The notes under the pieces were generated by a model. That model had not been told where the DNA came from and ran no database searches. It worked only from the letters and a program-made list of their open reading frames with translations. A stretch of 64,000 bases of DNA from Acidobacteriota bacterium (GTDB lineage Bacteria > Acidobacteriota > Vicinamibacteria > Vicinamibacterales > UBA823), in contig PCAK01000004.1 of assembly GCA_002730525.1 (NCBI GenBank), positions 5,362-69,361 on the forward strand, in the 5' to 3' direction. The position numbers and the translations under genes are program-made. This document shows, piece after piece, positions 15,735-53,020 of the stretch. How positions within the stretch are numbered: the first letter of the stretch is position 1; each line of letters begins with the position of its first letter.

Positions 15735-15759
15735 CGTATGCCAACATCGGCCTACATCA

Positions 15760-20279: not shown

Positions 20280-20304
20280 CAGGCCTGGTCCAGAGAACGG
20301 TCAG

Positions 20305-20310
20305 ATTATA
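20305..20310 (-). promoter_or_regulatory. Candidate -10 box (TATAAT on the minus strand) for the esterase/oxidoreductase operon
   Basis: Plus-strand attata is the reverse complement of tataat. It lies 25 nt upstream of the ATG at 20279. Confidence 0.35.
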
Positions 20311-20348
20311 GACCCGCGGCAACCCCCCCGCGCCGCGGCGAGAGTAAG

Positions 20349-31216: not shown

Positions 31217-32535
31217 TTTCCGCCTTCGCCGATGGCGTACAGGCTGTTATAGCCGCGCAGGTAGATCGTGTCGCCGACGAGCGCCGGCGAGGCGTCGAAG
31301 CCGTCGGCAAGCGTATTGGCGGCGAGCACCTCGTAGGTCCCGCCGTGGCGGATGACGAGCGTCGTGCCGTCGCGTCCTGGGAGGTAGACACGCCCCGCCG
31401 CGCCCACCGGTGAGGCGAAGATGTTCGGGACCTCGGGCAGCCGCTGCAACTGGTAGTGGGGTGTGCCGGTCCTGGCGTCGAAGACCGACAGGAGCCCGTT
31501 GTTCCGCTTCAGGAAGTAGAGGTGGTCTTCGTACAGAAGCGGCGACGGAACGTAGGGCGTATCACGGTCGAACGCCCAGACGATCGCATCGGTGCCGGTG
31601 ATGTCGCCCTTGGCCAGCGACAGATCGACCGCCTTCAGGTCGTTCCCGCGGTAGCCGGCCATGATGATGACCAGCCCATCGGCGGCGACCGGCGACGGGA
31701 TCGGGTTCATCGTCATGCCGTCGGCGTACCAGACGACGTCACCGTTCTCCAGGTCGTAGCTGAACAGCTGATCGCGGCCGCTCACGATGATCTGGGCGCC
31801 GCCGCCGTGTTCGACGATGAGCGGCGTCGCCCAGGAGTCAATTTCGTCGCGGTTCGTCCGCCAGACCTCTTCGCCGGTGGCGGCGTCGAGCGCGGCGACG
31901 AACGACTGACCCTGATGGTCCCAGACGACGACGAGCCGGTCGCCGTGCAACGCCGGCGTCGTGCCCTCACCGAACTGGTTCCGCATCGTCTTGTCGCCGA
32001 AGTCGTTCTCCCAGACGAGCGCGCCATCCATGGTGTAGGCGTAGAGGCCCTCGGACTCGAACGATGCGAACACCAGTTCTCCGTTCGTGACGGCTGAACT
32101 CGATGCCCAGCTGCCGTTCTCACCGTGCGTCGCCTCGTGCGGCGTATTCTCGCGGGCGGTTCGCTCCCAGATGATGCTGCCGTCGTGGCGATCGATCGCC
32201 ATCACCATGAACTGGTGAAGGTCACGCGGGCTGTACCCACCGCGGGGTTCGTGCGCGGCGTCGTCGGCGACGTTGGTGGGCACGGCGGTCAGGAGGAAGA
32301 GCTGGTCGCCCCAGATGACGGGCGAGCCCGAGCCGCGGCCGGGCACCTCGATCTTCCATCTGATGTTCTCGGTCTCGCTCCACTCGAGCGGCGGCGTGGC
32401 GTCGGCCGACGCTCCGGTTGCCGTCGGCCCGCGCCACTGCGGCCAGTGGGCCTCGCCGGACTGCGCCGCGGCGGGGGCGGCCCAGGCCGTAACGATGACA
32501 AGAACCAGGAGCCACAGGAGCGGTCGTCGGGTCAC
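31213..32535 (-). CDS. PQQ-like (BamB-type) beta-propeller repeat protein, secreted
   Basis: ORF 31213..33117. Start moved to GTG 32535 (SD ggagga, signal peptide LLWLLVLVIVTAWAAPAAAQ). HWPQWRGPTATGAS...SGSPVIWGDQLFLL and repeated DG..VW blades. The stop overlaps the convergent gene's stop. Confidence 0.75.
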   Translation of the reverse strand: MTRRPLLWLLVLVIVTAWAAPAAAQSGEAHWPQWRGPTATGASADATPPLEWSETENIRWKIEVPGRGSGSPVIWGDQLFLLTAVPTNVADDAAHEPRGGYSPRDLHQFMVMAIDRHDGSIIWERTARENTPHEATHGENGSWASSSAVTNGELVFASFESEGLYAYTMDGALVWENDFGDKTMRNQFGEGTTPALHGDRLVVVWDHQGQSFVAALDAATGEEVWRTNRDEIDSWATPLIVEHGGGAQIIVSGRDQLFSYDLENGDVVWYADGMTMNPIPSPVAADGLVIIMAGYRGNDLKAVDLSLAKGDITGTDAIVWAFDRDTPYVPSPLLYEDHLYFLKRNNGLLSVFDARTGTPHYQLQRLPEVPNIFASPVGAAGRVYLPGRDGTTLVIRHGGTYEVLAANTLADGFDASPALVGDTIYLRGYNSLYAIGEGGN

Positions 32536-32633
32536 GGATCGTTCCTCCAAGTGTTCGTCGTGTCGAACATCATGACGATGCCGGGCTCGGGGCCGTTTCA
32601 GGCCTTGGTTGCCCCAACGACGGCATGGTGACG

Positions 32634-35052: not shown

Positions 35053-37398
35053 TCACATCGATGAGAGGATTCTCACGGTGTCGGCGGCGGCTTCGGTCGG
35101 GTCGAGGGCGGTGTCGGCTATGCCGGAGACGACTTTCGTCAGGTTGTGATCGGTGAGCCCGGGGGTGGCCCAGGTCGTTGTCGGAGCGCGGGTGATGTAG
35201 ACGGAGAAGGCGTGGTGGCCGGAGCCTGGACGTTCACCGACGATGTGGAGGATTGACCGCTTGAATCCGCCAGCTCCCGAACCTCCGAAGAGCAATTCGC
35301 CGATTCGGTAGCCGGCGCGGACGCGGCCGGCGGTGACGACGATGTGCTCGGGCGCGAGGTTGAAACCGGCCTTGCCAAGCTCGGGGCGAAGCACCCTCAG
35401 AAAAGGCTGCAGGTGTCCCTCGTCGATCAACGCATAGGCGTTGAGACCGTCCGAAATCACGATCTGCGCATCGTAACGATCGTCCCGGTTCGCCGCCAGC
35501 CGACGAATCGCTCGTTCTGACGATGGACGGAGCGTCTCGCCGGTGGGAGGGTGCAGGATGTAGTCTCTGCGGCTCTCCGACGTCGTGGCCACCTCGAGAC
35601 TCGGCTTCACACCTGAGGCGAAATCCGTGGGCAATTCGGCCCAGATCGATTCCTTCGAGTCCCGATAGAGGTGCCGAATCTGACGATCGAGCTCGGAATC
35701 CAGCTGCCAGACCTCTCGGCCGTGGCTCTCGGCGATGAAGACTCCGCGGCTCCGAACGTCCTCGATGTGACGCCGACCTTCAACGAGGATCTCCGCCGCC
35801 GGGCGCCGGTCCCCTCTTCGCTGTCGGTATTTCATGTAGACCCACGCGGGCTGGCCGAAGTGCCGAGTCGGGTGCCCGTCGGTGTCGATGACCTCGAGGT
35901 CCTTGAAGAAGCGCCACATCGCGTCGTCGACCTTGTAGCCAAGCTTCTCGCGGATGCGGACATGATCCTGGAAGCCGGTCGTCAGGTAGCTCAACATCGG
36001 GTCGTTCTTCGTCGGAAGCGCCATCAGATAGGCCGGATTGGCCGGCAGGATCCGGTCGATGCACCAGTTGAGGTCGTCCAAGTCGACGTCCATGTGCAGG
36101 GTTGAACAGATGTCGAGCCCGATCGTCAGGCCGTGGAGCTTGCCCGCAACGGTGTCTTCAAGGCAGCAGCGGACCAGCTGTTCGCGCGTCCGGAAAATCT
36201 CCGGTCCGATGAAGCCCGCAACGTCATTGACGTGGACCCACGGCGCCGGCGGCCTATCCGCATCTTGCTGCGCCTCCGCCACACGCGCTTTCAGGGCGCG
36301 CGCGAAACCGTACTTGCGGGCCTCGTGGATCACCATGTCGAAGCCCTTGCCGTGTCCGTTCGTGGCGTCGGCACCCTGACCGGTCTCGAAGTAGAGTCCG
36401 TACTTGCCGGTTCGGCTGGCGGCGTGATCTACCATCTTTTGAACGGTGAGATCGAACGTCGTGTTGGCGTCCGCGACTCCCTCCAGACTCTGAAACCAGA
36501 TTCCAGTCGTTCCGGGAGCGCGGCGTTCGACTTCGGCCTGGACGTCGATGTGCGACAGGACGCACTGGGGAAGCATCTCTTCCAGTCCGAAGGTGTCGAG
36601 AATCTCTGCCAGCGTATTTTCGATCGCTGCTACCGACTCGATCTCACTCGAGACGGGGTTGGTCCCCAGGACGACGTCGCCGACCGCGTACGCCCACCCG
36701 TTGAACACCTGCCATCGGATGTCGTCCACGTTGTCGGTCGGCGAATTCGGCTGGATCCTCGCGCCCATGTAGCCTCTGGCGCCGATCTTCGAGCCGGGCA
36801 GGGGATTGAACACCTTGCGGCCGATCCGGATCAGCTCGTCGTTAGTCATCAGCTTGACTACACAGCCAATGATGTCGCTGGGTAGACCCGGCATGATCTT
36901 CTGGATCTCGTCTTCGCTGCTGCTGAGCAAGAACTTCTTCAGCTCGTCAACGGTCCAGCCACTGAGCGTCTCGGTGACCGTCCGGTCGACCGACTCTTCG
37001 ATGAACGAGTACAGTTCATCTTCAAAAACGGGGTTGTCGATCAGGTCGCCGATTCGAGTGTTCCCAAGGAGCTCCCGCGCCCGCGTGCGCGTTTCTTCGT
37101 CGCGTGCCGCAACGCCTATGGCCTGATCACCTTCTTTGAACTCGTTTGCGGTGCCCAGCAGCTGTCGATAGAACGTTGCGTCGAATTGCCCCCTGTTCTG
37201 CGAAATATGTGAGAAAAGGTCCTGACCGCGGGTTGCCATCCTGGCTGCGGAGGCATGCCCGGATCGGGAGAAGGCTCCGCTGAAGGTCCAGGAGGCGGCT
37301 GCGAGAAGGCCCGAGAGGAACGACCGACGAGGGAGGGCGTGACGTTGAGTCAGTGCGTCTGCCGCATTGCTTGGAGCAGTTCGTCTGGCCTGTGTCAT
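35053..37398 (-). CDS. eutBC: Ethanolamine ammonia-lyase, EutB and EutC fused in one polypeptide, with N-terminal twin-arginine-like extension
   Basis: EutB-like: GDQAIGVAARDEETRTRA, LYFETGQGADATNG, VAGFIGPEIF, GKLHGLTIGLDICSTLH. EutC-like tail: AQIVISDGLNAYA, HIVGERPGSGHH. N-terminus: ALPRRSFLSGLLAAASWTFSGAFSRSGHASAA. Confidence 0.85.
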   Translation of the reverse strand: MTQARRTAPSNAADALTQRHALPRRSFLSGLLAAASWTFSGAFSRSGHASAARMATRGQDLFSHISQNRGQFDATFYRQLLGTANEFKEGDQAIGVAARDEETRTRARELLGNTRIGDLIDNPVFEDELYSFIEESVDRTVTETLSGWTVDELKKFLLSSSEDEIQKIMPGLPSDIIGCVVKLMTNDELIRIGRKVFNPLPGSKIGARGYMGARIQPNSPTDNVDDIRWQVFNGWAYAVGDVVLGTNPVSSEIESVAAIENTLAEILDTFGLEEMLPQCVLSHIDVQAEVERRAPGTTGIWFQSLEGVADANTTFDLTVQKMVDHAASRTGKYGLYFETGQGADATNGHGKGFDMVIHEARKYGFARALKARVAEAQQDADRPPAPWVHVNDVAGFIGPEIFRTREQLVRCCLEDTVAGKLHGLTIGLDICSTLHMDVDLDDLNWCIDRILPANPAYLMALPTKNDPMLSYLTTGFQDHVRIREKLGYKVDDAMWRFFKDLEVIDTDGHPTRHFGQPAWVYMKYRQRRGDRRPAAEILVEGRRHIEDVRSRGVFIAESHGREVWQLDSELDRQIRHLYRDSKESIWAELPTDFASGVKPSLEVATTSESRRDYILHPPTGETLRPSSERAIRRLAANRDDRYDAQIVISDGLNAYALIDEGHLQPFLRVLRPELGKAGFNLAPEHIVVTAGRVRAGYRIGELLFGGSGAGGFKRSILHIVGERPGSGHHAFSVYITRAPTTTWATPGLTDHNLTKVVSGIADTALDPTEAAADTVRILSSM

Positions 37399-40632: not shown

Positions 40633-42636
40633 GTGGGTCAGCAACCGCTTCGAGGCATCGTCGTTCTCGTTCTCGGCCTGCTCGTCTGTGCTCATGCCGC
40701 ACCGCTCGGCGCCCAGGAGACGCTTCCGGATACCGAGTGGACGACCTACGGCGGCGACCTCGCGAGCACGCGCTACTCGCCGCTCGATCAGATCACCGCA
40801 GAGAATTTCGGCGAACTGCAGCTGGCGTGGACGCTCCAGGGTGACAGCTTTGGGCCGCGGCCCGAGACGAACTTCCAGTCGACGCCGCTCATGGTCGACG
40901 GCGTCGTCTACACGACGGTCGGCTCACGCCGGGCCGCGGCCGCGCTCGATGCCGAGAGCGGCGAACTGCTCTGGATGCACCGGATGGACGAGGGCGAGCG
41001 GGGCGAAGTGGCGCCCCGGCGACTCTCCGGCCGCGGCCTCACCTACTGGGACGACGGCGGCACGGGCCGGATCTTCTACGTGACGCCGGGCTACCACATG
41101 ATCGCAATCGACGCCGCGACCGGTCGCCAGATCCCGAACTTCGGTCTGGACGGCATCGTCGATCTGAAGCGGGAACTCGACCAGGAGGTCGATCCGTTAA
41201 CCGGCGAGATCGGCCTCCACGCCGCCCCGATCGTCGCCGGTGACACGATCATCATCGGCGCCGCGCACGTCGTGGGGTCGGCGCCGGTCAGCCGTGAGAA
41301 CGTGAAGGGCTACGTCCGGGGTTACGACGTTCGAACCGGCGAGCGGAAGTGGATCTTCCACACGTTGCCGCAGCTCGGCGAGTTCGGCAACGAGACCTGG
41401 CTGAACGATTCGTGGCGCTACACCGGCAATACGGGCATGTGGGGCCAGGCGACGGTCGACGTCGAACTGGGACTGGCCTACCTGCCGCTTGAGATGCCGA
41501 CCGGCGACTACTACGGCGGCCACCGGCTGGGCGACAATCTCTTCGGCGACGCCATCGTCGCGGTCGACCTCGAGACCGGCGAGCGGGTCTGGCACTACCA
41601 GACGGTGCACCACGACGTCTGGGACTTCGACCTGCCGTGCGCGCCGGTCCTCGCCGACATCACCGTCGACGGCCGCGCGATCAAGGCGATCGTCCAGCCG
41701 ACGAAGCAGGGCTGGCTCTTCGTCCTCGACCGGGCGACGGGCGAACCGGTCTGGCCGATCGAGGAACGGGCGGTCCCGGGGTCTGATATTCCGGGCGAGG
41801 TCCTGGCGCCGACGCAGCCCTACCCGACGAAACCCCCGGCGTTCGACCGCCAGGGGATTGGGACCGACGATCTGATCGATTTCACCCCGGCGCTCCGCGC
41901 CGAGGCGCTGGAGGTGGTGGGGAAATTCCGCATCGGACCGATCTACACGCCGCCCTCGGTCGCGACGGCCGACGGCACCTACGGTACGTTGATGGTGCCG
42001 TCAGCGACCGGCGGACCGAACTGGCCGGGCGGCGCGCTCGACCCCGAGACGGGCATCTTCTACATCTATTCGAAGACCCAGGTAACCAGGCTCGGGCTCG
42101 TCAACGACCCCGAACGCTCCGACATGGACTTCGTCATGGGACGTCCAGAGGGTGTGAACGCCGCGATGGCGGGGACATCGGTGCAGGGGCTGCCGCTGGT
42201 GAAGCCGCCGTGGGGGCGGATCACGGCGATCGATCTCAATGAGGGCGAGATCGTCTGGCAGGTGGCGCACGGCGAGACGGCCGACAACGTGCGGGATCAC
42301 CCGGCGCTTCAGAACCTCGAGATCCCGCGGACAGGTCGTCCGGGCCGCATCGGTACGCTGGTGACCAAGACGCTGGTCATCGCCGGCGATGGCGGGAGGT
42401 TCACCGACAGCGAGGGCGTCGAAGGCGCCCGGCTCCGGGCCTACGACAAGGCGACCGGGCGTGAAGTGGCGTCGGTTTTCATACCGTCGAACCAGACCGG
42501 CTCGCCGATGACCTATGCGATTGGCGGCGTGCAGTACCTCCTCGTCGCCGTCGGCGGCGGCGGCTACGCCGGTGAGCTGCTCGCGTTCCGGCTGCCCGAG
42601 TCGGTGACCGAGGAGTACCAGCCCGTCGCGCCCTGA
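40633..42636 (+). CDS. PQQ-dependent dehydrogenase, glucose/quinate-dehydrogenase-like soluble form (paralog of 20349..22427)
   Basis: GTG start with SD aggag. Signal peptide. EWTTYGGDLASTRYSPLDQI, HHDVWDFD, ATGGPNWPGG, GRITAIDLNEGEIVW. Collinear with the 20349 protein. Confidence 0.8.
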   Translation: MGQQPLRGIVVLVLGLLVCAHAAPLGAQETLPDTEWTTYGGDLASTRYSPLDQITAENFGELQLAWTLQGDSFGPRPETNFQSTPLMVDGVVYTTVGSRRAAAALDAESGELLWMHRMDEGERGEVAPRRLSGRGLTYWDDGGTGRIFYVTPGYHMIAIDAATGRQIPNFGLDGIVDLKRELDQEVDPLTGEIGLHAAPIVAGDTIIIGAAHVVGSAPVSRENVKGYVRGYDVRTGERKWIFHTLPQLGEFGNETWLNDSWRYTGNTGMWGQATVDVELGLAYLPLEMPTGDYYGGHRLGDNLFGDAIVAVDLETGERVWHYQTVHHDVWDFDLPCAPVLADITVDGRAIKAIVQPTKQGWLFVLDRATGEPVWPIEERAVPGSDIPGEVLAPTQPYPTKPPAFDRQGIGTDDLIDFTPALRAEALEVVGKFRIGPIYTPPSVATADGTYGTLMVPSATGGPNWPGGALDPETGIFYIYSKTQVTRLGLVNDPERSDMDFVMGRPEGVNAAMAGTSVQGLPLVKPPWGRITAIDLNEGEIVWQVAHGETADNVRDHPALQNLEIPRTGRPGRIGTLVTKTLVIAGDGGRFTDSEGVEGARLRAYDKATGREVASVFIPSNQTGSPMTYAIGGVQYLLVAVGGGGYAGELLAFRLPESVTEEYQPVAP

Positions 42637-42658
42637 GGCCGGCGCCTGGCGTCCAGCG

Positions 42659-44029
42659 CTAGGTGAAGAGCCCGGAGATCATGATCGCCAGGACGGCGAT
42701 CGGTACGACGTAGCGCATCAGGAACTGCCAGAGCGTGAAGAGGATGTCATGGCCGAGCGCCAGCTCGCGCCTGAAGGTATCGCTCGACACGACCCACCCC
42801 GCGAACAGCGCGATCAGCAGCGCGTTGGTCGGCAGCAGCATCGAGCCGGTCATGAAGTCGAAGACCTCGAAGACCGACATTCCGGCGAACGCTGGAATGA
42901 ACCCGAGCGGCGTCACGCCGGCCAGGACGGTGTCGGACAGGGCCGGCGCCAGACCCAGCAGCCAGATCGCCGCGGCGGCCGCCGGCGTCAGCACGCGGCG
43001 CGGCGTCCGCCACTTCTCCTCCAGGTAGGACACGATCGGCTCCAGCATGCCGAGCGTCGTCGTGTAGGCCGCCAGCGTCAGCAGCAAGAAGAAGAGGATG
43101 CCGATGACCTGTCCGAGGGTCATCCCGCCGAACGCGATCGGCATCGTCACGAAGACCAGCCCGGGCCCTTCACCCGGGCTCAGGCCGGAGGCGAAGACGA
43201 TCGGGAAGATGACCAGCCCGGCCAGCAGCGCGATCACCGTGTCGACGACGCCGATGATGACGGCGGCCCGCGGCACCGAGATCTCGCGCGGGAGGTAGGC
43301 GCCGTAGGTCATCATGAAGCCGACCCCGACGCCGACCGAGAAGAACGCCTGACCGAGCGCCAGCAGCAGCGACGTGGCCGTCAGCTGCGAGAAATCTGGC
43401 GTGAAGAGGAACGTGGCCGCCGCGCTCATGTCGGCGGCGAACAGGTTGTAGATGAAGATGATCAGCAGGATCCCGGCGAGGCTGGGCACCATGACCTTCG
43501 TCGCCCGCTCGATGCCCTGGCGCAGGCCTCCGCCGATCGCCACCGCGGTCAGGCCGATGAAGATTCCCTGGAGGGCGACGGTGGCGGCCGGCGATCCCGC
43601 CAGCGACTGGAACAGTTGCTGCGAACCGTCGGCGTCGACGCCGGCGAACGTGTTCCGGAGGGCCTCGATGGTGTACTGCAGTGACCAGCCGGCGACGATG
43701 CTGTAGTAGGCGAGGCCGAGACCCGGACCCAGCACGCTCAGGTAGCCGATCGCCTGCCACGCCGGCGAACCGCCCTGAGCCTTGAGGATCTCGCGGACCG
43801 AGCCGATCGGGCTGAGTTGGCCCATCCGGCCGATGGCCAGTTCGGCCGAGATGACCGGCACGCCGATCAGGAAGACGAAGGCGAGGTAGACGAGAACGAA
43901 CGCCGCGCCACCGTACTCGCCCGCGAGATACGGGAACCGCCAGATGTTGCCGAGGCCGACCGCCGCGCCCGCCGTGGCGAGCAGGAACGCGCCGTGGGAC
44001 GACCATCGTTGGTGAACGGGCTCGGCCAT
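42659..44029 (-). CDS. Neurotransmitter:sodium symporter (SNF/NSS) family transporter
   Basis: WSSHGAFLLATAGAAVGLGNIWRFPYLAGEYGGAAF is the NSS TM1 signature. About 11-12 TM segments. Confidence 0.85.
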   Translation of the reverse strand: MAEPVHQRWSSHGAFLLATAGAAVGLGNIWRFPYLAGEYGGAAFVLVYLAFVFLIGVPVISAELAIGRMGQLSPIGSVREILKAQGGSPAWQAIGYLSVLGPGLGLAYYSIVAGWSLQYTIEALRNTFAGVDADGSQQLFQSLAGSPAATVALQGIFIGLTAVAIGGGLRQGIERATKVMVPSLAGILLIIFIYNLFAADMSAAATFLFTPDFSQLTATSLLLALGQAFFSVGVGVGFMMTYGAYLPREISVPRAAVIIGVVDTVIALLAGLVIFPIVFASGLSPGEGPGLVFVTMPIAFGGMTLGQVIGILFFLLLTLAAYTTTLGMLEPIVSYLEEKWRTPRRVLTPAAAAAIWLLGLAPALSDTVLAGVTPLGFIPAFAGMSVFEVFDFMTGSMLLPTNALLIALFAGWVVSSDTFRRELALGHDILFTLWQFLMRYVVPIAVLAIMISGLFT

Positions 44030-44042
44030 GCGTTCGGGCCTC

Positions 44043-45023
44043 TCAGGAGGACGCGGGCTGCGCCTTCGGCTTCTTGCGCAGGATCAACCAGTGCACGCAC
44101 TTCTCCTCGTCGTCGTACAGCCGTTCGCAGTCGTCACAGCGCACGCACTCGGCGAGCGAGATCTTCGGCCCGTCGATCGCGCCCCACTCGCAGGCCTTCT
44201 CGCAGATCTTGCAGCCCTGACACTCGGTCCAGCGCTTGATCTTGAAGACCGTCAGGTTCGAGATGAGCCCGAGGGCCGCGCCGACCGAACAGAGATACCG
44301 GCAGTAGAGGTTGCGGACGAGAATCGTGCCCAGCAGCAGCGTGCCCAGCAGCGTCCACATCAGCACATTGCCGCTCAGGGTGAACATCCAGAACGGTTCG
44401 ACATAGCGGTAGACGAGGAAGTCTCCGCTCGCGAAGAAGTACAACAGCACCACGCCGAGGATGACGTACTTGATGTAGGCGAGGCGCCGATCGAGCGAAG
44501 CCGGCGGGTCGAAGCGCAGCCGTGCGGGCATGACGCGGTCGAGCAGTTGTGTAAATGCGCCGAACGCGCAGATCCGCCCGCAGTACAGCCGGCCCCAGAG
44601 CACCGTCGACACCGTCGTGAAGCCGATCAGCAGATACCAGGGGATGCTGTGCCGGACATCGGGAAAGTTGCCCTCGAGGATCGCGAAGATATTCACGATC
44701 GACACGAGGTTCGACTTGTAGAAGCCGAGGTAGGCGATCGACCCGGCGAACGACACGTACTTCAGAGGCACGCTCTTCCGCGTGAAGCTGAAAACGGCGA
44801 AGCCGAGGACGAGCGCCATGCCGACGATGTCGCCGATCTCCGCCGCGCTGAGCGACGCGACCGACTCTTTCAGTTCGTCTTCTTCGAGCAGTGCGTCGAG
44901 ATCCTCGAGCGAGAACTCCGGCTGGTCGGCGTCGCCGTCTGGCGCCGGCTGGGTGGCGGCGGTCGGGGGCACGAGCAGCCCCGCGGCGAGGGCCAGCACG
45001 GCGACGATCCGCACGGCGCTCAC
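44043..45023 (-). CDS. Polytopic 4Fe-4S protein, NapH / NosR C-terminal-half-like
   Basis: GTG 45023 in a GTGA overlap with the upstream gene. Membrane CX3C motifs YCGRIC and YCRYLC. C-terminal CQGCKICEKAC and CVRCDDCE...C ferredoxin-type clusters. Confidence 0.75.
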   Translation of the reverse strand: MSAVRIVAVLALAAGLLVPPTAATQPAPDGDADQPEFSLEDLDALLEEDELKESVASLSAAEIGDIVGMALVLGFAVFSFTRKSVPLKYVSFAGSIAYLGFYKSNLVSIVNIFAILEGNFPDVRHSIPWYLLIGFTTVSTVLWGRLYCGRICAFGAFTQLLDRVMPARLRFDPPASLDRRLAYIKYVILGVVLLYFFASGDFLVYRYVEPFWMFTLSGNVLMWTLLGTLLLGTILVRNLYCRYLCSVGAALGLISNLTVFKIKRWTECQGCKICEKACEWGAIDGPKISLAECVRCDDCERLYDDEEKCVHWLILRKKPKAQPASS

Positions 45024-45583
45024 TTCTGCGCCTCGAGCTGTTCCTTGACGAACTCGCGGAACATCCGCCGTGTCGAGCGACGGATCGCCGACGTGGCGGC
45101 CCGGACCGTGATCGTGGCACCGGAGATACCGTCGACGTCGTCGCCCACGACGAGCCGCTCACGGTAGCGGCGATTGGGGAACTGATTGGCGAAGCGCGGT
45201 TGTTCGATAGACCGCGCGCCATAGGGTTCATTGTGGCTCACCACCGACACCGCGATCATGGTGCCGGCCGGCCGCAACCCGACCATCATGACGATCTCGC
45301 TGGTGTACCCGGTGATGACGTGCCCGGCGTCGGGATTCATGTAGGCTAGGCCGACCAGCGTGTCGGCGGCACCGTCCGTACCGCGGACGTAGCCGCGGAA
45401 GTGGGGATACTCGCCGTCCTTGCTGACGTAGTAATCGGCCTCGGGCACCACCGTCTCGAGATGCTTCCGGTATCGTTCGACACGCGCGTCGCCGGTCTGT
45501 GCGCCGCCATAGGTGGAGAGTACGGCCGGCACGGCGAGTGCCGACAGCAGGGCCGTGGCGAGGGCGACGATTAGTCTATTCAC
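45020..45583 (-). CDS. FMN-binding-domain protein, NosR N-terminal-half-like
   Basis: ORF 45020..45817. Start moved to GTG 45583 (VNRLIVALATALLSALAVPAV anchor). SHNEPYG and DGISGATITVRAAT (the SGAT flavinylation motif of FMN_bind domains). Confidence 0.7.
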   Translation of the reverse strand: MNRLIVALATALLSALAVPAVLSTYGGAQTGDARVERYRKHLETVVPEADYYVSKDGEYPHFRGYVRGTDGAADTLVGLAYMNPDAGHVITGYTSEIVMMVGLRPAGTMIAVSVVSHNEPYGARSIEQPRFANQFPNRRYRERLVVGDDVDGISGATITVRAATSAIRRSTRRMFREFVKEQLEAQK

Positions 45584-45593
45584 GAAGTGGGTA

Positions 45594-45599
45594 ATTCTA
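45594..45599 (-). promoter_or_regulatory. Candidate -10 box (TAGAAT on the minus strand) 10 nt upstream of GTG 45583
   Basis: Minus strand reads ggatagaattacccacttcGTG. No SD at the normal distance. Confidence 0.3.
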
Positions 45600-45636
45600 T
45601 CCTCAAACGCCGCGCGGCGCGGTGACAGGCGGGCGG

Positions 45637-47109
45637 CTAGCGCCGCCGGGCGAGCGAGATCCGTCCCTGGAGGTCGCTGCCACCCGTCGCGATCATCCAG
45701 GAGTTCGCCTTCGGGACGACGAACGACTCGCGGACGAAGCCGCGATTGCGGACCTGTCGCACCTCCCACTCGAGCCGGTCGGCGTAGACGCGGAAGACGC
45801 GGTACGAGTTCGGCCACTCGACCACGGCGGCGTTCTGGATGTGGTGAATCCCCTGGAGGTCGTTCACCTCGTCCCAGTGGTCGTGACCGTTCAACGTCGC
45901 GACGACGTTGGGCGCGGCGCGCACGATGTCGAGCACCGCCTCACGGCCGAGCACGCTCCAGTCGTGCAGCCGGAAGCCGCACGACGAGAGGCCACCGCGA
46001 TTGAACGGCGCGTAGTGCCAAACGACGATCGTGGGCGTCTGGCGATCGGCCATCAGCGTGTCGCGGAGCCAGGCGCGCTGGTCGTCGCGCGCCTCGGGTT
46101 CTTCGATCTTCACGTCCAGCACGACGAAGCGCAGCGGCGGCTTCGGCAGGGCGTAGCTGAGGCTGCCGCCGGGGAAGAGATCCCCCAGCAGCTCCCGCGC
46201 ATCGGGCCGCGAACTCTCGAGGTACACATCGTGGTTGCCCATGCAGCCGTAGACCGGGAGCGGCTGCGAGCCGACGATCCCCGCGAACAGCGCGAACTCG
46301 TCCCGCGTCGCATTCTCGGTCATGTCGCCGCCGTGCATCACGAAGTCGATCCCCTCGCGGGCGAGCGCCCAAAGCGTCGCGCCGAATTCGGCCGTGACCG
46401 CCTCGCCCATCTTGAGGTTCATCCAGAGATGTCTCCCTTCGAACCGGACGTGGGTGTCGCCGATGAGCGCGAAGCGGTAGCGCGGGGCCTCGACGGGATC
46501 GGGGAGCGGGCTGAGCCGCAGGGCGCGGAACCGTCCCGCGTCGCGGAAGTGCGGGCCGGCGATCGTCAGCCGGTGGAGCCCGCCGGGCAGCAGCCAGCGA
46601 TCCACCGAAATGGTGTCCGGTGGCCTCGTACCCAGCACCTGCGGGGCCGGGTCGTTGATCTCGGCGATGCCCCACGACGGCGCGGCCACCATCGGCGCGG
46701 CGATCACCGTGTCGTCGCACAGCACCGTCGCGCGCAGGCCGGGTCGGAGGTCGTCCGACGGCTCGAGATCCAGTTCGGCTGATAGATAGACGGGCTCGTC
46801 GGCTTCGACGGTGAACGTCAACAGGCCGTCCGGAGCGATCGGCTGGGCGGTCCCGCCGGGCTCCTCGACGTCGAGCCGCGCCAGGTCGAGCGCGTAGGCG
46901 CCGTCCGGCGCGGTCAAGGTTAGCGTCCCGCGCCGTGGCATAGGGCGCGCCCGCTGGTCGGCCAGCGCGTGCAGCTGGGGCGCGAGCAGGGGATACGCCT
47001 CGAGCGCCGACGTCCCCTGGAGGCCGAAGGCCGATCGGGCGATCGACAGCGAGGCGCCGGCGGCGCTCATCGCCCTCAGGAAGTCACGCCGTGAGCGGGG
47101 TTGAGGCAT
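45637..47109 (-). CDS. Tat-exported metallophosphoesterase (calcineurin-like) with N-terminal extra domain
   Basis: MPQPRSRRDFLRAMSAAGASLSIARSAFG twin-arginine signal. IGDTHV, HGGDMTE, GNHD and NGHDHW metal-ligand motifs. Confidence 0.75.
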   Translation of the reverse strand: MPQPRSRRDFLRAMSAAGASLSIARSAFGLQGTSALEAYPLLAPQLHALADQRARPMPRRGTLTLTAPDGAYALDLARLDVEEPGGTAQPIAPDGLLTFTVEADEPVYLSAELDLEPSDDLRPGLRATVLCDDTVIAAPMVAAPSWGIAEINDPAPQVLGTRPPDTISVDRWLLPGGLHRLTIAGPHFRDAGRFRALRLSPLPDPVEAPRYRFALIGDTHVRFEGRHLWMNLKMGEAVTAEFGATLWALAREGIDFVMHGGDMTENATRDEFALFAGIVGSQPLPVYGCMGNHDVYLESSRPDARELLGDLFPGGSLSYALPKPPLRFVVLDVKIEEPEARDDQRAWLRDTLMADRQTPTIVVWHYAPFNRGGLSSCGFRLHDWSVLGREAVLDIVRAAPNVVATLNGHDHWDEVNDLQGIHHIQNAAVVEWPNSYRVFRVYADRLEWEVRQVRNRGFVRESFVVPKANSWMIATGGSDLQGRISLARRR

Positions 47110-47149
47110 TCAGTTCGTGCTCCACCGGCCACTCGGGTAGCGCGGGACT

Positions 47150-49921
47150 TCAGTCCCGCGATGCGGCCATCCGAGGGATGGCCCACCAGTGCCGGATCCG
47201 CCACGACAGATGCTCGACGACGTCGGGATAGCGGTCGGCGAGGTCGGTCGTCTCGTAGGGATCGGCGATGAGGTCGAAGAGTTGCGGAGCATCTGGTCCG
47301 CCGGCGTGAACGAGCGCGTAGCGGCCGAGACGGCCGTCGTGGCGAACCAGCAGCTTGAACCGGCCCTCGATCACCCAGCGGTAGAGCAGGCTGGCCGAGG
47401 GGTCGTCGATGTCGGCGATATCGTGCGCGAACGCCTCGCCGAAGATCGCGTCGCGAACCGGCGTCTCGCCGCCGACGATCACGCGCAGCAGATCGATCCC
47501 GGGCAGGGCCGGCTGCGGCTGCAATCCGGCCGCGGCGAGCAGTGTCGGTGCCAGGTCGATGCTGCTGACCGTCAGATCGTGCCGGCCTGGCTCGACCACG
47601 CCCGGCCAGCGCAGGACGATCGGTGTCCGCGTGCCACCCTCGAACGGCGACTGTTTCGACCGCGGCGCGAACATCTGGTTCCAGCCGTCCGGCAGCGCAG
47701 GCGGCGACATGTCGGGTGTCGCCTGGATCCAGCCGTTGTCGGTGACGAACGCGACCAGCGTGTCGTTGGCGAGACCCTGCTCGTCGAGATGACCGAGCAG
47801 CGCCCCGACGGTCTCGTCGAACCACTCGCACATCGCGTAGTACCGCGCGATCTCGATTGGACGGCCCGGGGCTCGGTACTTGTCGAGCAGCCGCTCCGGC
47901 GGGTTGTGCGGCAGGTGCGGCAGGAAAGGCGCGTACCAGACGAAGAACGGTTGATCCGCAGCGTTCGCCGTATCGATGAAGTCGAAGACCGGCGCCAGCC
48001 CGCTCCGGCCGATCGTCAACCCCGCGTCGCCGTGGCGGCCGCCGCGGTTCTGATCGCCGTGCGTCATCCCCCCCGAGAACCCACCGCGTGCATAGCCGCC
48101 TTCCCACCACTTGCCCGACTGGAAGCTGGTGTAGCCGGCGTCGCCGAGCAAGCGGGGCACGGTCGGCGTCTCGTCGATGCGGGCGACGAGTTGCTGATTG
48201 AGGGCGCGATAGGCCGGGTCGTTCCAGTAATCCGCCCCGGCGGCCGGCGTGTCGACGAAGGGGTCGTTGCCAGTGACGCCGTGGGTGTGGGCGTAGAGGC
48301 CGGTTGCCAGCGTCGACAGTGACGGTCGGCAGAGCGCGGTCGGGACGTAGCCGCGCGTGAACAGGGCGCCGGCCGAGGCCAGGGCGTCGAGGTTGGGCGT
48401 CTCGATCGTCTGATGCCCCATGAACCCGAAATCGGTCCACGACTGGTCGTCGCCGATGATGAGCACGATGTTCGGCTGCTCGGCGCGCTCCGGTGCCGGC
48501 CGCGCCTGGAAGGCCGCGCGGTCGTACGGTCCGCCGTAGGCGTCGCGCAGCGCGTCGGTGCGGGCCCTGAGCGTGTCGAGGGTCGGGCCGTAGGCGAGAT
48601 CCTCGACGAGGTTCTCGAGCTGCTCGGGGTCGCGTTCGAGGTCGTGCAGGAACTCATAGGCCGGCTGCTGCTCGAAGTACCGTGCGTAGACCATCCGCGC
48701 GTCGCGGACCCCTTCGTACTTCGGGATGGTGTCGTACTCGACGAGGTGTTCGATGAAGAAGTCGGTACGCCACGCCGCGGGTTCGTCGCCGGCGACGAAC
48801 GGCAGCAGGCTCCGGCCGCGGTACGCTTCGGGCGGCTCGACGCCGGCGATGTCGAGAATGGTCGCCGGGATGTCCATGTTGAGGGCGATCGCGTCGGTTG
48901 AGCGTCCGCGATCGGCCGGCTCGCGGCGCGGGTCATGAATGACGAGCGGCACCCTGAGCGATTCCTCGTAGTGGGACCACTTGCCGGCGAAGCCGCGCGC
49001 ACCCAGGTAGTAGCCGTTGTCGCTCGAGAAAATGATCACTGTGTCGCCGTCGAGGCCGAGGAGTGCCAGCTCGTCGAGGACACGGCCCATCGCCTGGTCG
49101 ACGCCGGTGATCATCCGGTAGTAGGCCCGGATGTTCCGGTCGTACTTCTCGAGCGTGTCCCAGCGCCAGAACCAGCGCTCGCGGTTGAGCGAGGCCTTGA
49201 GAAAATCCGGCTGCGCGTCGAAGACCGCCGGGTCGGAGAGCGCCGCCGGCGCGATCTCGGCGTCGTCGTACAGGCCATCGACGGCGGCCGGCCAGGGATA
49301 GTGCGCGTCGTGATCGATATCCTCGGCATGCGGCGCGTTGAAGCTGACGCTGAGCGCGAACGGCTGGCCCCCGGCCGGGTCGTGGCCACGCAGGAACTCG
49401 ACGGCCCGATCGGCCGCGACCTCGGTGATGTGCCGGACCTCTCCGTCGGGTTGAATCTGGAAGTACGGATTCCGGTCGAGCGGCTCGAAGATGTCAAACA
49501 TCGTCCGGACGGCATCGGCTTCCGTGACCACGCCGAACTTGCCGACGAACCCGGTGCGGTAGCCCGCCTCGCGCAGCAACGCCGGGTAGCTGCGATCGGT
49601 GTGCCTGGCCTCGAGCGGTGGCGTGTCCAACGTGAAGCGATGCGTCCGTTCGGGCACGCCGGTCAGGATCGTCGCGCGGCTGGCCATGCAGATCGCCGTT
49701 GTGACGAAGGCGTGGGTGAACCGGATACCGTCGGCCGCCAGAGCGTCGATCGTCGGCGTGTCCAGGATCGGGTGCTCGGCGGCGCCCAGCTGGTCGTGCC
49801 GCTGGTCGTCGGACAGGAAGAAGATGATGTTGGGCGGCGGTGCATCCGCCGGCTGGGCGTTGATGGGCCCGCCCGCCAGCACGAACATCAGGACGAGTGC
49901 GCTCGACGGGCGGCTGGGCAT
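47150..49921 (-). CDS. Secreted tandem-sulfatase fusion protein (two complete sulfatase domains, 923 aa)
   Basis: Domain 1: NIIFFLSDDQRHD ... CMASRATILTG. Domain 2 from about residue 490: NIVLIIGDDQSWTD ... LCRPSLSTLATG. Each is followed by its own C-terminal subdomain. Confidence 0.8.
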   Translation of the reverse strand: MPSRPSSALVLMFVLAGGPINAQPADAPPPNIIFFLSDDQRHDQLGAAEHPILDTPTIDALAADGIRFTHAFVTTAICMASRATILTGVPERTHRFTLDTPPLEARHTDRSYPALLREAGYRTGFVGKFGVVTEADAVRTMFDIFEPLDRNPYFQIQPDGEVRHITEVAADRAVEFLRGHDPAGGQPFALSVSFNAPHAEDIDHDAHYPWPAAVDGLYDDAEIAPAALSDPAVFDAQPDFLKASLNRERWFWRWDTLEKYDRNIRAYYRMITGVDQAMGRVLDELALLGLDGDTVIIFSSDNGYYLGARGFAGKWSHYEESLRVPLVIHDPRREPADRGRSTDAIALNMDIPATILDIAGVEPPEAYRGRSLLPFVAGDEPAAWRTDFFIEHLVEYDTIPKYEGVRDARMVYARYFEQQPAYEFLHDLERDPEQLENLVEDLAYGPTLDTLRARTDALRDAYGGPYDRAAFQARPAPERAEQPNIVLIIGDDQSWTDFGFMGHQTIETPNLDALASAGALFTRGYVPTALCRPSLSTLATGLYAHTHGVTGNDPFVDTPAAGADYWNDPAYRALNQQLVARIDETPTVPRLLGDAGYTSFQSGKWWEGGYARGGFSGGMTHGDQNRGGRHGDAGLTIGRSGLAPVFDFIDTANAADQPFFVWYAPFLPHLPHNPPERLLDKYRAPGRPIEIARYYAMCEWFDETVGALLGHLDEQGLANDTLVAFVTDNGWIQATPDMSPPALPDGWNQMFAPRSKQSPFEGGTRTPIVLRWPGVVEPGRHDLTVSSIDLAPTLLAAAGLQPQPALPGIDLLRVIVGGETPVRDAIFGEAFAHDIADIDDPSASLLYRWVIEGRFKLLVRHDGRLGRYALVHAGGPDAPQLFDLIADPYETTDLADRYPDVVEHLSWRIRHWWAIPRMAASRD

Positions 49922-49972
49922 CGCCGAAGCAAATCACACCGTCGGCCGGGGTGCAAGGCAGCGCTCCTGGTG

Positions 49973-49978
49973 CATAAT
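49973..49978 (+). promoter_or_regulatory. Candidate -10 box (CATAAT preceded by TG) 12 nt upstream of ATG 49991
   Basis: ggtgcataatgcaacctccctcATG. No SD. Confidence 0.3.
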
Positions 49979-49990
49979 GCAACCTCCCTC

Positions 49991-51289
49991 ATGGCCGATC
50001 GGTTGCCGATCTCGGCAGAGTTTCTCGCTGAACAGAACGCCGCTCTCGAGGCTCATCTACGGGCGGATTTCGAGCATCTCGGCGCGCAACTCGAGCGGCG
50101 CGGCGCGGCGATCGACCGCCTGGTCGACCGGGTGCGAGGCCTCCGGGTGGCCATTCCCACCTGGGGCGTCGGCACCGGAGGGACGCGCTTCGCCCGGTTT
50201 CCGATACCGGGCGAACCTCGCAGCATCTTCGAGAAGCTCGAGGACTGCGCCGTCGTCCAGCAGCTTGGCCGTGCGACGCCGACGGTCTCGCCGCACCTGC
50301 CGTGGGACCGTGTCGACGACGTCGACGCGCTTCGCCGGCACGCCGCCGCGCTCGGCCTCGGGTTCGATGCCGTCAACTCGAATACGTTCCAGGATCAACA
50401 GGGGCAGGGACATTCGTACAAGTACGGCAGCCTGACGCATGTCGATCCGGCGGTGCGCGCGCAGGCCGTCGCCCACAACCTCGACTGCATCGCCGTCGGC
50501 GAACGCCTCGGGTCCAAGGCGCTCACGGTCTGGATTGCCGACGGCTCGAACTTCCCGGGCCAGCAGCACTTCGCGCGCGCGCTCGATCGTTACGTCGATG
50601 CGATGCGCGAGATCTACGCGAAGCTGCCGGACGGTTGGCGGTTGTTCCTGGAGCACAAGCTCTACGAGCCGGCGCTCTACTCGACGGTCGTCGCCGACTG
50701 GGGCACCAGCTACGTCTGTGCCGAGCGCCTCGGGCCGCGTGCGCAGTGCCTGGTCGATCTCGGGCACCACGCGCCGACGGTGAACGTCGAGCAGATCGTC
50801 GCGCGGCTGATCCAGTTCGGCAAGCTCGGCGGGTTCCACTTCAATGACTCGAAGTACGGCGACGACGACCTCGACACCGGCGCCGTCGATCCGTTCCGGA
50901 TCTTCCTGGTCTTCAATGAGTTGGTCGACGCGGAGGCGCGTGAGGTCGACGGCTTCGATCCGGCCTACATGCTCGACCAGTCGCACAACGTGACTGATCC
51001 GATCGAGAGTCTGATCGAGAGTGCGGCGGCGGTCCAGCGCGCGTTCGTGCAGGCTCTGCTGGTCGACCGCGACGCGCTCGGCGCCGCCCAGGAGGCGAAC
51101 GACCCGTTGGGTGCCGCGCAGTTGCTGCGCGAGGCGGCTCGGACGGACGTCGAGCCGGTCCTCAGGATGTCGCGGCTCGGCGCCGGTGGGGCGATCGATC
51201 CGCTCGCGGCCTATCGCGCGTCGGGCTACCGGGCGCGGACGGCCGAGACGCGGACCGCCGAACCGACGGGGCGGCCTGGGATCGTCTGA
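49991..51289 (+). CDS. rhaI: L-rhamnose isomerase, TIM-barrel (Pseudomonas stutzeri / actinobacterial RhaI type)
   Basis: ORF 48935..51289. The 5' 350 codons are an antisense shadow of the sulfatase. ATG 49991 gives a 432-aa protein: IPTWGVGTGGTRFARF, LEHKLYEP, DLGHH, FHFNDSKYGDDDLDTG. Confidence 0.7.
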   Translation: MADRLPISAEFLAEQNAALEAHLRADFEHLGAQLERRGAAIDRLVDRVRGLRVAIPTWGVGTGGTRFARFPIPGEPRSIFEKLEDCAVVQQLGRATPTVSPHLPWDRVDDVDALRRHAAALGLGFDAVNSNTFQDQQGQGHSYKYGSLTHVDPAVRAQAVAHNLDCIAVGERLGSKALTVWIADGSNFPGQQHFARALDRYVDAMREIYAKLPDGWRLFLEHKLYEPALYSTVVADWGTSYVCAERLGPRAQCLVDLGHHAPTVNVEQIVARLIQFGKLGGFHFNDSKYGDDDLDTGAVDPFRIFLVFNELVDAEAREVDGFDPAYMLDQSHNVTDPIESLIESAAAVQRAFVQALLVDRDALGAAQEANDPLGAAQLLREAARTDVEPVLRMSRLGAGGAIDPLAAYRASGYRARTAETRTAEPTGRPGIV

Positions 51290-51315
51290 GGTCGCCGGTC
51301 ACCGATCGATGCGCT

Positions 51316-52992
51316 ATGTCTGAGCCCACGTCCGCTGCGGCCGAAGCGCACTACGAGTTCGACCGCGAGCCGGTCAGCGCCGACCGGCTCCTCGGTCCGG
51401 GGCACTTCGCCGCGTCGTTCGCCGGCGAGCACGTCGCGGCGACCGAGTTCGTCATCGGCGCCAGCTTCGTGAGCTGGGGTGCGGCGATCGGCGACGTCTT
51501 CGTCGGGCTGGCAGTCGGCAACCTCCTGGCCGTCCTGAACTGGGCGTTGCTCTGCGCGCCGGTGGCGGTCGACACCCGGCTCACGCTCTACTGGTACCTT
51601 CGGCGGATCGGTGGCCCGGCCGTGACCGCCGTCGCCAACGTCCTCAACGCCTTGCTCTACTGCGTCCTGGCCGGCGCGATGATCACGGTGGCCGCCTCGG
51701 CCGTCCGGATCCCGTTCGGCATCCCGGCGCAGACCGGCCTCTACCCGACCGACGCGCGATTCGTGCTGGTCGTCGTCGCCGTCGGCGGGCTGGTGACCTG
51801 GCTCGCGATCGCCGGGTTCCGGCGGCTGGCCGACTTCGCGATGGTCTGCGCGCCGTGGATGTTCCTCATGTTCCTGGTCGGCGCGCTCGCCGTGCTGCCG
51901 CGGCTGGGGGAGGCCGCCGGGGTCGGTGCGGTCGGATCGCTCGCCGAATTCTGGCAGGTGGGGGAATCGACGATCTGGACCGGCCGGACGCCGGACGGGG
52001 CCGAGGGCCTCTCGTTCTGGCATGTGGCGGCCTTCGCATGGGTCTGCAATCTGGCGATGAACGCCGGCCTGTCCGACATGGCGCTGCTGCGCTACGCGCC
52101 GAACGCGCGCTACGGGTTGTTCTCGATCTTCGGAACGTTCCTTGGGCACTACGTCGCCTGGATCGCCGCCGGGGTGATGGGCGCCGGCGCCGCGGTGCTG
52201 ATGGGCAACCCGCTCACCGAGATCGATTCGGGTGGCGTCGCCTACGCCGCGCTCGGCTGGGCCGGGGCGCTAGCGGTCGTGATTGCCGGGTGGACGACCT
52301 CGAACCCGACCATCTATCGGGCCGGGCTGGCGCTGCAGGCGGTGACACGCAACGGGTCGCGGACCCGGATCACGTTGGGGGTCGGCGTGGTCACCACCGG
52401 GATCGCCTGTTTCCCGTTCGTCTTCAGCCGGCTGCTCGACTTCGTCGGCGTCTACGGTTTGGTGCTCTGCCCGGCTGGCGCGATCGTCCTCACCGAACAC
52501 TGGTGGTTTCCACGACTCGGATTGCGGCGGTACTGGGCTGAGGCGCGCGGTGCGCTCAACGTGCCCGCGCTCGTCGCCTGGCTCGGATCGCTCGTTGTGG
52601 CGTTCGCCCTGAACCGGGCGGGCGTGCATCTGTTCTTTCTGTTCGTGCCGACCTATCTCGTGGCGGTCGGACTCTACGTCGTGCTGGCCGCGCGAGCCGG
52701 GGCGGAGGAGGCAACGCGGAGCGAGGGCGCCGAGGCTGCACCGTTGCCGCCCGCACCTCCCGTCGCGCCTGCCGCCGCACCGGTAAAGGAACCGGATCGA
52801 ATGGCGGCCCTGTGGGGCGTCGTGGCGCTTGCGGCCCTTGCCGTCTGCTTCTGGCTCGGCCTGCGGGTCGCGCTCGGCGGCCTCGACGGCTATACCGAGA
52901 GCCACGACGCGCTCAGGCGCTGGATCGGCTGGCCGACGGTCGTCTATTTCGCCGCCGGTACGATGTTCGTCCGTGCCCGCGAACGCCGGTGA
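51316..52992 (+). CDS. Multi-pass permease (tentatively NCS1 / purine-cytosine-permease-like) with C-terminal Pro/Ala linker and two extra TM segments
   Basis: 12 or more hydrophobic segments. The N-terminal FAGEHVAATEFVIGASFVSWG region resembles NCS1 TM1. Located between rhaI and the GH78 gene. The family call is weak. Confidence 0.5.
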   Translation: MSEPTSAAAEAHYEFDREPVSADRLLGPGHFAASFAGEHVAATEFVIGASFVSWGAAIGDVFVGLAVGNLLAVLNWALLCAPVAVDTRLTLYWYLRRIGGPAVTAVANVLNALLYCVLAGAMITVAASAVRIPFGIPAQTGLYPTDARFVLVVVAVGGLVTWLAIAGFRRLADFAMVCAPWMFLMFLVGALAVLPRLGEAAGVGAVGSLAEFWQVGESTIWTGRTPDGAEGLSFWHVAAFAWVCNLAMNAGLSDMALLRYAPNARYGLFSIFGTFLGHYVAWIAAGVMGAGAAVLMGNPLTEIDSGGVAYAALGWAGALAVVIAGWTTSNPTIYRAGLALQAVTRNGSRTRITLGVGVVTTGIACFPFVFSRLLDFVGVYGLVLCPAGAIVLTEHWWFPRLGLRRYWAEARGALNVPALVAWLGSLVVAFALNRAGVHLFFLFVPTYLVAVGLYVVLAARAGAEEATRSEGAEAAPLPPAPPVAPAAAPVKEPDRMAALWGVVALAALAVCFWLGLRVALGGLDGYTESHDALRRWIGWPTVVYFAAGTMFVRARERR

Positions 52993-53020
52993 CGCGCCGC
53001 CGGCCGGAGGTAGAGTACAG

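Follow-up and report, generated by a model that had tools for sequence, protein, structure and literature searches.

A conserved pair of FMN-binding and NosR-related iron-sulfur membrane proteins in Vicinamibacterales, a probable electron conduit of the NapH-like flavinylated kind

We analyzed a 64,000-nucleotide stretch of an acidobacterial genome (Acidobacteriota; Vicinamibacteria; Vicinamibacterales; UBA823; GenBank assembly GCA_002730525.1, contig PCAK01000004.1, positions 5,362 to 69,361 of the forward strand; hereafter the window), in which two overlapping genes on the minus strand encode a flavin mononucleotide (FMN)-binding protein and a polytopic iron-sulfur (Fe-S) membrane protein. 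Comparison with relatives showed that this pair is a conserved, translationally coupled unit, and its products probably form a self-contained two-subunit conduit for electrons across the membrane, of the NapH-like flavinylated kind and related to NosR. The other genes around the pair are not conserved. The features of the pair, in window coordinates, are as follows.

45020..45583, minus strand: gene for an FMN-binding protein (RnfG/NqrC/NosR-N-terminal type; PF04205), exported or membrane-anchored
45113..45133, minus strand: ApbE flavinylation motif D151-G-I-S-G-A-T157, an exact match to D-x-x-[S/T]-G-A-[S/T]
45020..45023, minus strand: GTGA stop/start overlap of the FMN and Fe-S genes (translational coupling), read from the sequence
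44043..45023, minus strand: gene for a polytopic NapH/NosR-C-terminal-like iron-sulfur protein of 326 amino acids (PF12801, NosR model)
44568..44582, minus strand: first membrane-interface CX3C motif, YC148GRIC152, invariant in 30 homologues
44289..44303, minus strand: second membrane-interface CX3C motif, YC241RYLC245, invariant in 30 homologues
44097..44222, minus strand: two ferredoxin-type Cys clusters, C268-x2-C271-x2-C274-x3-C278 and C293-x2-C296-x2-C299-x9-C309

To collect relatives of the Fe-S protein, one genome per species was scanned with an alignment-based search, which yielded at least 471 confirmed relatives. All locus counts given here cover the best 80 of these (Fe-S identity 52-87%), which belong mostly to the Vicinamibacterales and other Acidobacteriota and to the Rhodospirillaceae and other (marine) Alphaproteobacteria. 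Of the 80 loci, 74 have an FMN_bind gene no more than 7 kb from the Fe-S gene, and 73 copies share its strand. The FMN stop codon overlaps the longest Fe-S open reading frame (ORF) in 60 of these 73 same-strand pairs (4 nt in 48 pairs, 1 nt in 12); in the window, the FMN stop TGA (45022..45020) overlaps the GTG start of the Fe-S gene at 45023, producing the GTGA that an earlier reading of this DNA, made without database searches (the sequence-only reading), had already pointed out. Given this frequency of linkage and overlap, the conserved unit is the two-gene pair with its translational coupling. Several genomes bear two paralogous pairs.

Recurrent neighbours were defined by de novo clustering of all ORFs around the 80 loci. 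A gene for ApbE (PF02424, E=3e-88) adjoins the pair in 23 loci, and at the homologue P0020 (Fe-S identity 68%) a divergent ApbE gene is followed by the pair and then by a GGDEF gene. Other recurrent neighbours were NHL propellers (17 loci), PQQ_2 propellers (14), DUF5916 (13) and HupE_UreJ_2 (11), with a cyclase and a hydrolase also among the annotated clusters. Just upstream of the FMN gene, 30 of the 80 loci carry a divergent gene for a small secreted protein (~160-190 amino acids) without a Pfam match and with a conserved Cys near each end (for example, L066:3679-4152(-) and L046:8787-9359(-)). This protein, which could be a partner of the pair in the lineages that carry it, was not found in the window (tblastn E>0.2).

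The FMN gene has a GTG start and encodes 187 amino acids. Its mechanically called ORF extends to 45817; we adopted the shorter form because the extension overlaps the end of the upstream gene and because an independent gene call in 99%-identical strains likewise gives 187 amino acids. The product matches Pfam FMN_bind (PF04205, E=3.1e-11, 44.2 bits, cut-off 22), which bears out the FMN-binding domain recognized earlier from SHNEPYG at 45020..45583; it also contains DGISGATITVRAAT, and its residues 1-26 are hydrophobic by hydropathy. In NCBIfam it aligned to positions 14-159 of the NosR model and to the RnfG models, all under cut-off, and its nearest relative in the Protein Data Bank (PDB) is RnfG (7zc6_G, E=7e-7). 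The ApbE motif is D-x-x-[S/T]-G-A-[S/T], the last residue of which takes the FMN (PMC12052999). Its exact occurrence here as DGISGAT upholds the ApbE-type threonine motif of the sequence-only reading and makes Thr157 the predicted attachment site.

The motif is well kept among 79 homologues at its D (77 copies), A (79) and T/S (79) positions. The Gly position varies: in the 73 same-strand copies it is Arg in 41, Thr in 22, Gln in 1 and Gly in 9. The wider family (L009-L080) has mostly D-A-V-S-R-A-T or D-A-V-S-T-A-T, for example at L021:9432-10007 and L046:9369-9890, and the canonical S-G-A-T is retained in the clade of the window and among the relatives closest to it (L009, L010, L019 and L055, together with the partners of P0012 and P0020). 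Since the Arg variant occurs in 21 of the 23 loci with an adjoining ApbE gene, these motifs suggest that ApbE tolerates a non-Gly residue among the FMN partners of the wider family.

The Fe-S protein matches Fer4_5 (PF12801, E=8.7e-11, 42.1 bits, cut-off 22), with a weak PF00037 Fer4 match at residues 265-283, and its homologues carry the precomputed Pfam assignment PF27538 'NosR'. It aligned to positions 434-678 of the 680 in the NCBIfam NosR model (E=8e-34) and more weakly to the NapH model (E=5e-15), in both cases under cut-off. Profile searches, which had been suggested as a check on the sequence-only reading, therefore returned both FMN_bind and NapH/NosR matches. Invariance was judged on an alignment of 30 Fe-S homologues (56-88% identity), in which the mean column identity is 60% and all 12 cysteines are invariant, 8 of 8 in the ferredoxin-type clusters. 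The YCGRIC and YCRYLC motifs and the two Cys clusters seen earlier in the translation were all located in this way.

Hydropathy gave the order of the Fe-S protein as a signal-like N-terminus, an acidic outer segment, about five transmembrane helices and a C-terminal di-cluster ferredoxin domain. The outer N-terminal segment holds 12 acidic residues vs 1 basic residue, and the CX3C motifs sit in Arg/Lys-rich loops. From hydropathy and the positive-inside rule we infer an N-out/C-in topology, which, with its cytoplasmic ferredoxin domain, agrees with the topology published for NosR in its C-terminal half. The acidic extracytoplasmic segment between the signal-like N-terminus and the first transmembrane helix (44865-44957, residues 23-53, FSLEDLDALLEEDELKE) is itself conserved, with the consensus LSLD..LDALLEED in the 30-homologue alignment, and may serve as a helix on which the FMN subunit or a partner enzyme docks.

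Among known systems, NosR/NirI (Pseudomonas stutzeri NosR; NF046105, PF27538) resembles the pair in its periplasmic FMN domain, ApbE motif, two CX3C motifs and di-cluster ferredoxin domain, and the two window proteins align to opposite ends of the NosR model. The sequence-only reading was thus right that both genes jointly hold the domain content of NosR (FMN domain, CX3C membrane core and two ferredoxin-type clusters) and that they do so as separate genes. It went too far in regarding them as a split NosR machinery, as they are not simply the two halves of a NosR: the pair lacks any equivalent of about 270 NosR residues (model positions 160-433). The NosR motifs are present (DGISGAT, C148/C152, C241/C245, C268-C278/C293-C309), without the Pro after CX3C; Ala or Ser comes next here, whereas NosR and NapH carry CX3CP. 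Instead of a single polypeptide of ~700 amino acids there are two genes, which score 116.9 and 36.6 bits against the 1000-bit equivalog cut-off, and neither the window nor the annotated recurrent neighbours at the 80 loci included nos genes of a nosZDFYL cluster. Because of the two genes, the unmatched residues, the low scores and the missing nos context, the pair is not a NosR. It might still be argued that the pair is a true NosR in two parts, serving a nitrous-oxide reductase encoded elsewhere in the genome, given that NosR is the best NCBIfam model for both proteins and that PF27538 is assigned to the Fe-S homologues. The same scores, gap and gene context make this very unlikely, and the genomes with two paralogous pairs also speak against it.

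The Fe-S protein has in common with NapH/MauN (TIGR02163, NF007013) a Fer4_5 core, two CX3C motifs and two cytoplasmic [4Fe-4S] motifs. However, it reached only 55.8 bits (cut-off 213) and 49.1 bits (cut-off 234), it has an additional signal-like N-terminus and acidic outer helix, and it partners a flavoprotein, whereas NapH is the quinol-oxidizing subunit in the periplasmic nitrate reductase and has NapG as its partner. Neither napG/napA nor other nap genes were found in the window. With RnfG/NqrC (7zc6_G, 9eri_G) the FMN_bind fold and the region of the covalent-FMN motif align ('ISGATITVRAAT' vs 'ITGATITSKAVT'), but the FMN protein scores ~38 bits against cut-offs of 102-230, and rnf or nqr genes were not found in the window. 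By score and by context, the pair is not NapH, RnfG or NqrC. Other members of the Fer4_5/NapH superfamily are PceC/RdhC of organohalide respirers and the cupric reductase CcoG/FixG; PceC is encoded in rdh operons as one fused protein, and CcoG works on the cytoplasmic side without an FMN partner. The pair shows neither context. PceC is flavinylated (PMC8238504; PMC12052999), and NosR and PceC are the two characterized flavinylated NapH-like proteins (PMC8238504).

The closest description of the pair is the class of NapH-like flavinylated systems, defined by a PF12801 protein clustered with an exported FMN_bind protein (PMC8238504). We applied it as a multi-transmembrane PF12801 (or KEGG K19339) protein clustered with an extracytosolic FMN_bind protein or ApbE. 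The Fe-S protein has the PF12801 match (42.1 bits vs 22) and several hydrophobic helices, and the FMN_bind protein (44.2 bits vs 22) has a hydrophobic N-terminus and is encoded with a 4-nt overlap. The pair is also like these systems in that nos, nap and pce genes were not found and that ApbE adjoins it in some members of the family. Méheust et al. 2021 (eLife, PMC8238504) catalogued 2465 NapH-like clusters, most of them with unknown partners, and 539 of them have a separate FMN-binding gene; the split arrangement, which the sequence-only reading had presented as something new, is therefore already on record. The class is operational and spans many lineages. In the portion of Méheust et al. 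2021 available to us, the subfamily of the pair is not singled out and the transporter and dehydrogenase neighbourhood of the window clade, considered below, is not described. The pair is a further member of an already catalogued kind, bioinformatically defined and biochemically uncharacterized.

In the mechanism that we propose, the Fe-S subunit would span the membrane about five times, with its N-terminus and conserved acidic helix outside and with the CX3C motifs and two [4Fe-4S] ferredoxin clusters facing the cytoplasm. The FMN subunit would be exported, and an ApbE encoded elsewhere in the genome would attach FMN covalently to Thr157, as is suggested by the ApbE genes that adjoin the pair in many relatives. 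The FMN subunit would then dock on the outer face of the Fe-S subunit to form a complex. Electrons would run, via the Fe-S centres, between the periplasmic FMN and a pool in the cytoplasm or at quinol level, and a soluble redox enzyme of the periplasm would take electrons from the FMN or pass them to it. The analogy with NosR and PceC makes outward (reducing) flow the more likely default. The earlier suggestion of a periplasm-directed electron supply with an unknown acceptor survives to this extent, trans-membrane electron transfer being a reasonable reading of the pair.

Several points weigh against this proposal. No apbE, nosZ, napA or cytochrome c genes were found in the window by a Pfam scan of ~45 ORFs and tblastn with an ApbE protein, in line with what had been stated earlier for the first three, and apbE was not seen beside the pair in the eight closest loci either, so flavinylation rests on an unseen gene. 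An AlphaFold2 model of the Fe-S protein, built on the 30-sequence alignment (mean pLDDT 59.1, pTM 0.36, ferredoxin domain ~30), is too poor to support the topology, and PDB searches with the Fe-S protein sequence and with the alignment profile, up to E=1, gave no match and hence no solved relative. Finally, the pair forms a block with a transporter and a pyrroloquinoline quinone (PQQ)-dependent dehydrogenase gene that is intact in its closest relatives, which leaves room for a functional tie to either of these neighbours. The genes flanking the pair in the window are listed below.

40633..42636, plus strand: convergent gene for a soluble PQQ-dependent dehydrogenase (PQQ-DH; glucose/quinate-type propeller; PF01011, E=2.8e-183)
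42659..44029, minus strand: gene for an MhsT-like NSS (SNF) Na+-dependent transporter (PF00209, NF037979)
45637..47109, minus strand: gene for a Metallophos protein of 490 amino acids with an SRRDFL twin-arginine N-terminus (Pfam)
47150..49921, minus strand: gene for a protein with two Sulfatase domains

The surroundings of the pair were compared by mapping 16 window genes with tblastn onto loci L001-L009. Eight of these, L001-L008 (Fe-S identity at least 72%), form one clade with the window in a neighbour-joining tree, with a sister group that includes the homologue P0012. The backbone of this subclade runs GGT, Sortilin-like, a variable island, FMN, Fe-S, NSS, the convergent PQQ-DH, a variable segment and an S9 peptidase. 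The block from FMN to PQQ-DH is uninterrupted in 8/8 subclade loci, with insertions or deletions at both of its borders. The island (45637-55783) comprises the phosphoesterase, the double sulfatase, a TIM-barrel protein, a 558-amino-acid permease and an alpha-L-rhamnosidase, and looks like a cassette for the utilization of sulfated rhamnan or another glycan, inserted between the Sortilin-like and FMN genes. It is complete in the window and in L001, lacks the phosphoesterase in L008, is fragmentary in L007, is reduced to the TIM-barrel gene in L005 and is missing from L003. In the 99%-identical strains GCA_002327665.1 and GCA_002687695.1, an ORF of 167-180 amino acids without a Pfam match (L092:8698-9240 and L093:8737-9240, vs window 45637-47109) replaces the phosphoesterase, and the distance from sulfatase to FMN gene is ~780 nt shorter, which points to a deletion of ~780 nt or a phosphoesterase pseudogene.

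Some side observations came from the same comparison. The L001 contig (JASLOV010000184.1), labelled Dehalococcoidia, has genes 73-95% identical to the acidobacterial window along its entire 20 kb, and in the L009 contig (CAZMUA010000001.1), labelled Woeseiaceae, the Sortilin-like gene is 82% and the PQQ-DH gene 70% identical to its window counterpart; the likely cause of these labels is faulty binning, the alternative being recent transfer. Elsewhere in the window, a single ORF of 781 amino acids (35053-37398(-)) matches both EutB and EutC and thus encodes a fused ethanolamine ammonia-lyase, which is called as one gene of 728 or 781 amino acids in the sister strains. An Rfam scan of the whole 64-kb window (for example, for an FMN riboswitch) gave no match, and a consensus scan of positions 42000-50500 gave no promoter-like sites and three terminator-like sites, vs 2.6 expected.

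Two features had made the locus look special in the sequence-only reading, a coupling of the pair to the SNF symporter and a five-gene same-strand string of sulfatase, phosphoesterase, FMN, Fe-S and symporter genes. Both framings fail because adjacency to the transporter, the phosphoesterase and the sulfatase is not conserved, an outcome that had been set in advance as grounds for refutation: for the phosphoesterase and sulfatase the proposed link is refuted, and for the transporter it is confined to a single lineage. Because island content varies among close relatives, the string is two independent units joined, and the phosphoesterase and double sulfatase belong to the variable glycan-utilization island, separate from the pair. 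We consider it extremely unlikely that the pair serves these two enzymes, for example as a periplasmic reductant for their maturation or activity. The genes do lie on the same strand with short gaps (sulfatase to phosphoesterase 40 nt, phosphoesterase to FMN gene 53 nt), and the phosphoesterase, sulfatase and FMN products are all extracytoplasmic. However, the phosphoesterase is absent from L003, L005 and L008, fragmentary in L007 and truncated to the short ORF in the 99%-identical strains, the sulfatase is absent from L003, L005 and all 72 more distant loci and belongs instead to an indel island in which it travels alongside the rhamnosidase, permease and TIM-barrel genes, and neither enzyme class is known to be redox-dependent in catalysis. 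The transporter deserves closer attention. Its gene starts 13 nt downstream of the Fe-S stop, as stated earlier, and its product belongs to the NSS/SNF family (PF00209, E=3.8e-48, 164.9 bits vs 27; NF037979, 123.5 bits vs 50), with MhsT (4us3, E=4.8e-85) as its nearest PDB relative. The gene is probably co-transcribed with the pair. No terminator-like site was found in that gap, and the same order with gaps of ~13-50 nt is kept in eight loci. A functional unit of the two, whether for redox-controlled uptake or as a small Na+-motive redox device feeding the Na+ symporter, might also draw on the fact that the nearest solved relatives of the FMN domain are subunits of the Na+-translocating Rnf complex. 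Against this, the membrane subunit is NapH/NosR-like and not RnfA/D/E- or NqrB/D/E-like, the transporter is an ordinary MhsT-like amino-acid carrier, and the adjacency arose once and marks a single clade: it is seen in L001-L008 (8/80 loci), in 0/72 other pair loci and in 0/4 NSS orthologues (63-68% identity), which had neither FMN_bind nor Fer4_5 neighbours. At P0012 (Fe-S identity 73%) a helicase gene follows the pair instead, and the NSS orthologue, P0249, lies ~390 kb away on the same contig. A functional unit is thus highly improbable, and with four negative orthologue neighbourhoods we rejected the transporter as a general partner of the pair. The adjacency is a gene-order feature of one monophyletic Vicinamibacterales subclade, and the NSS gene is a lineage-specific passenger and no mechanistic partner.

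The remaining neighbour, which did not figure in the earlier reading, is the PQQ-DH; 22 nt separate the end of its gene from the NSS stop. The protein matches TIGR03074, the model for membrane glucose/quinate dehydrogenase, over positions 149-769, without the N-terminal anchor; its N-terminus is signal-like, and Pfam detected no haem or cytochrome domain. It is a candidate redox partner of the pair, and among the neighbours the only one for which a redox relation is plausible. The pair could be the physiological electron acceptor of this anchor-less enzyme, with substrate oxidation delivering electrons through PQQ and the covalent FMN to the Fe-S clusters and on to the quinone pool, so that the pair would stand in for the cytochrome c or membrane anchor of other quinoproteins. 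We regard this as unlikely, and distinctly doubtful in the more specific form in which, within this Vicinamibacterales lineage, glucose-type PQQ dehydrogenases without anchor or haem would have the pair as their dedicated membrane acceptor. The absence of both the membrane anchor of membrane glucose dehydrogenase (mGDH) and a Pfam cytochrome domain would fit such a role, as does the convergent gene itself, retained next to the NSS gene in 8/8 subclade loci despite variable flanks of the four-gene block. A literature search for links between NosR-like or flavinylated proteins and quinoproteins returned Méheust et al. 2021 alone, who report 172 genomes in which NapH-like clusters include ExaA PQQ alcohol oxidases and propose the same inward route, from ExaA oxidase to flavinylated NapH-like protein to respiratory chain (PMC8238504). 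However, none of three PQQ-DH orthologues (70-74% identity) neighbours FMN_bind or Fer4_5, the Fe-S homologues P0012 and P0020 had no PQQ-DH nearby, and a PQQ-DH-like gene lies within 10 kb in just 11 of the 72 loci outside the subclade. The subclade preserves the region as a whole as a syntenic backbone, the GGT, Sortilin-like and S9 peptidase genes included, and the PQQ-DH lies on the opposite strand and therefore outside the operon of the pair. The 64 kb hold four PQQ-type beta-propellers (15622-17574(+), 19671-22427(+), 31213-33117(-) and 40633-42636(+)), so proximity to one is expected by chance; no pqq biosynthesis genes were seen in the window. With three negative orthologue neighbourhoods we rejected the PQQ-DH as a general partner, and we keep it as a minority alternative. 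At L009 a PQQ-DH of 70% identity lies 6 kb from a pair, which may be counted in favour of the link. We rejected this locus as a cross-phylum case, as three unrelated genes intervene and the NSS gene is absent, and the contig is probably acidobacterial given the 82% identity of its Sortilin-like gene. If the link to the PQQ-DH were true, the pair would be a flavin-based replacement for cytochrome c or the mGDH anchor, it might serve several PQQ propellers of these genomes in trans, and what the co-transcribed NSS carrier brings in might be the substrate or product of the dehydrogenase.

Taken as a two-subunit electron conduit of the NapH-like flavinylated kind, the pair in the window is one further example of its kind and brings no new principle, and the coupling to Na+ symporter, phosphoesterase and sulfatase that had set the locus apart does not survive comparison. 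The family to which the pair belongs is nevertheless large and strongly conserved, and it has neither an experimental characterization nor a solved structure. It marks a gap in our knowledge of how redox equivalents are supplied to the periplasm in abundant soil and marine heterotrophs.

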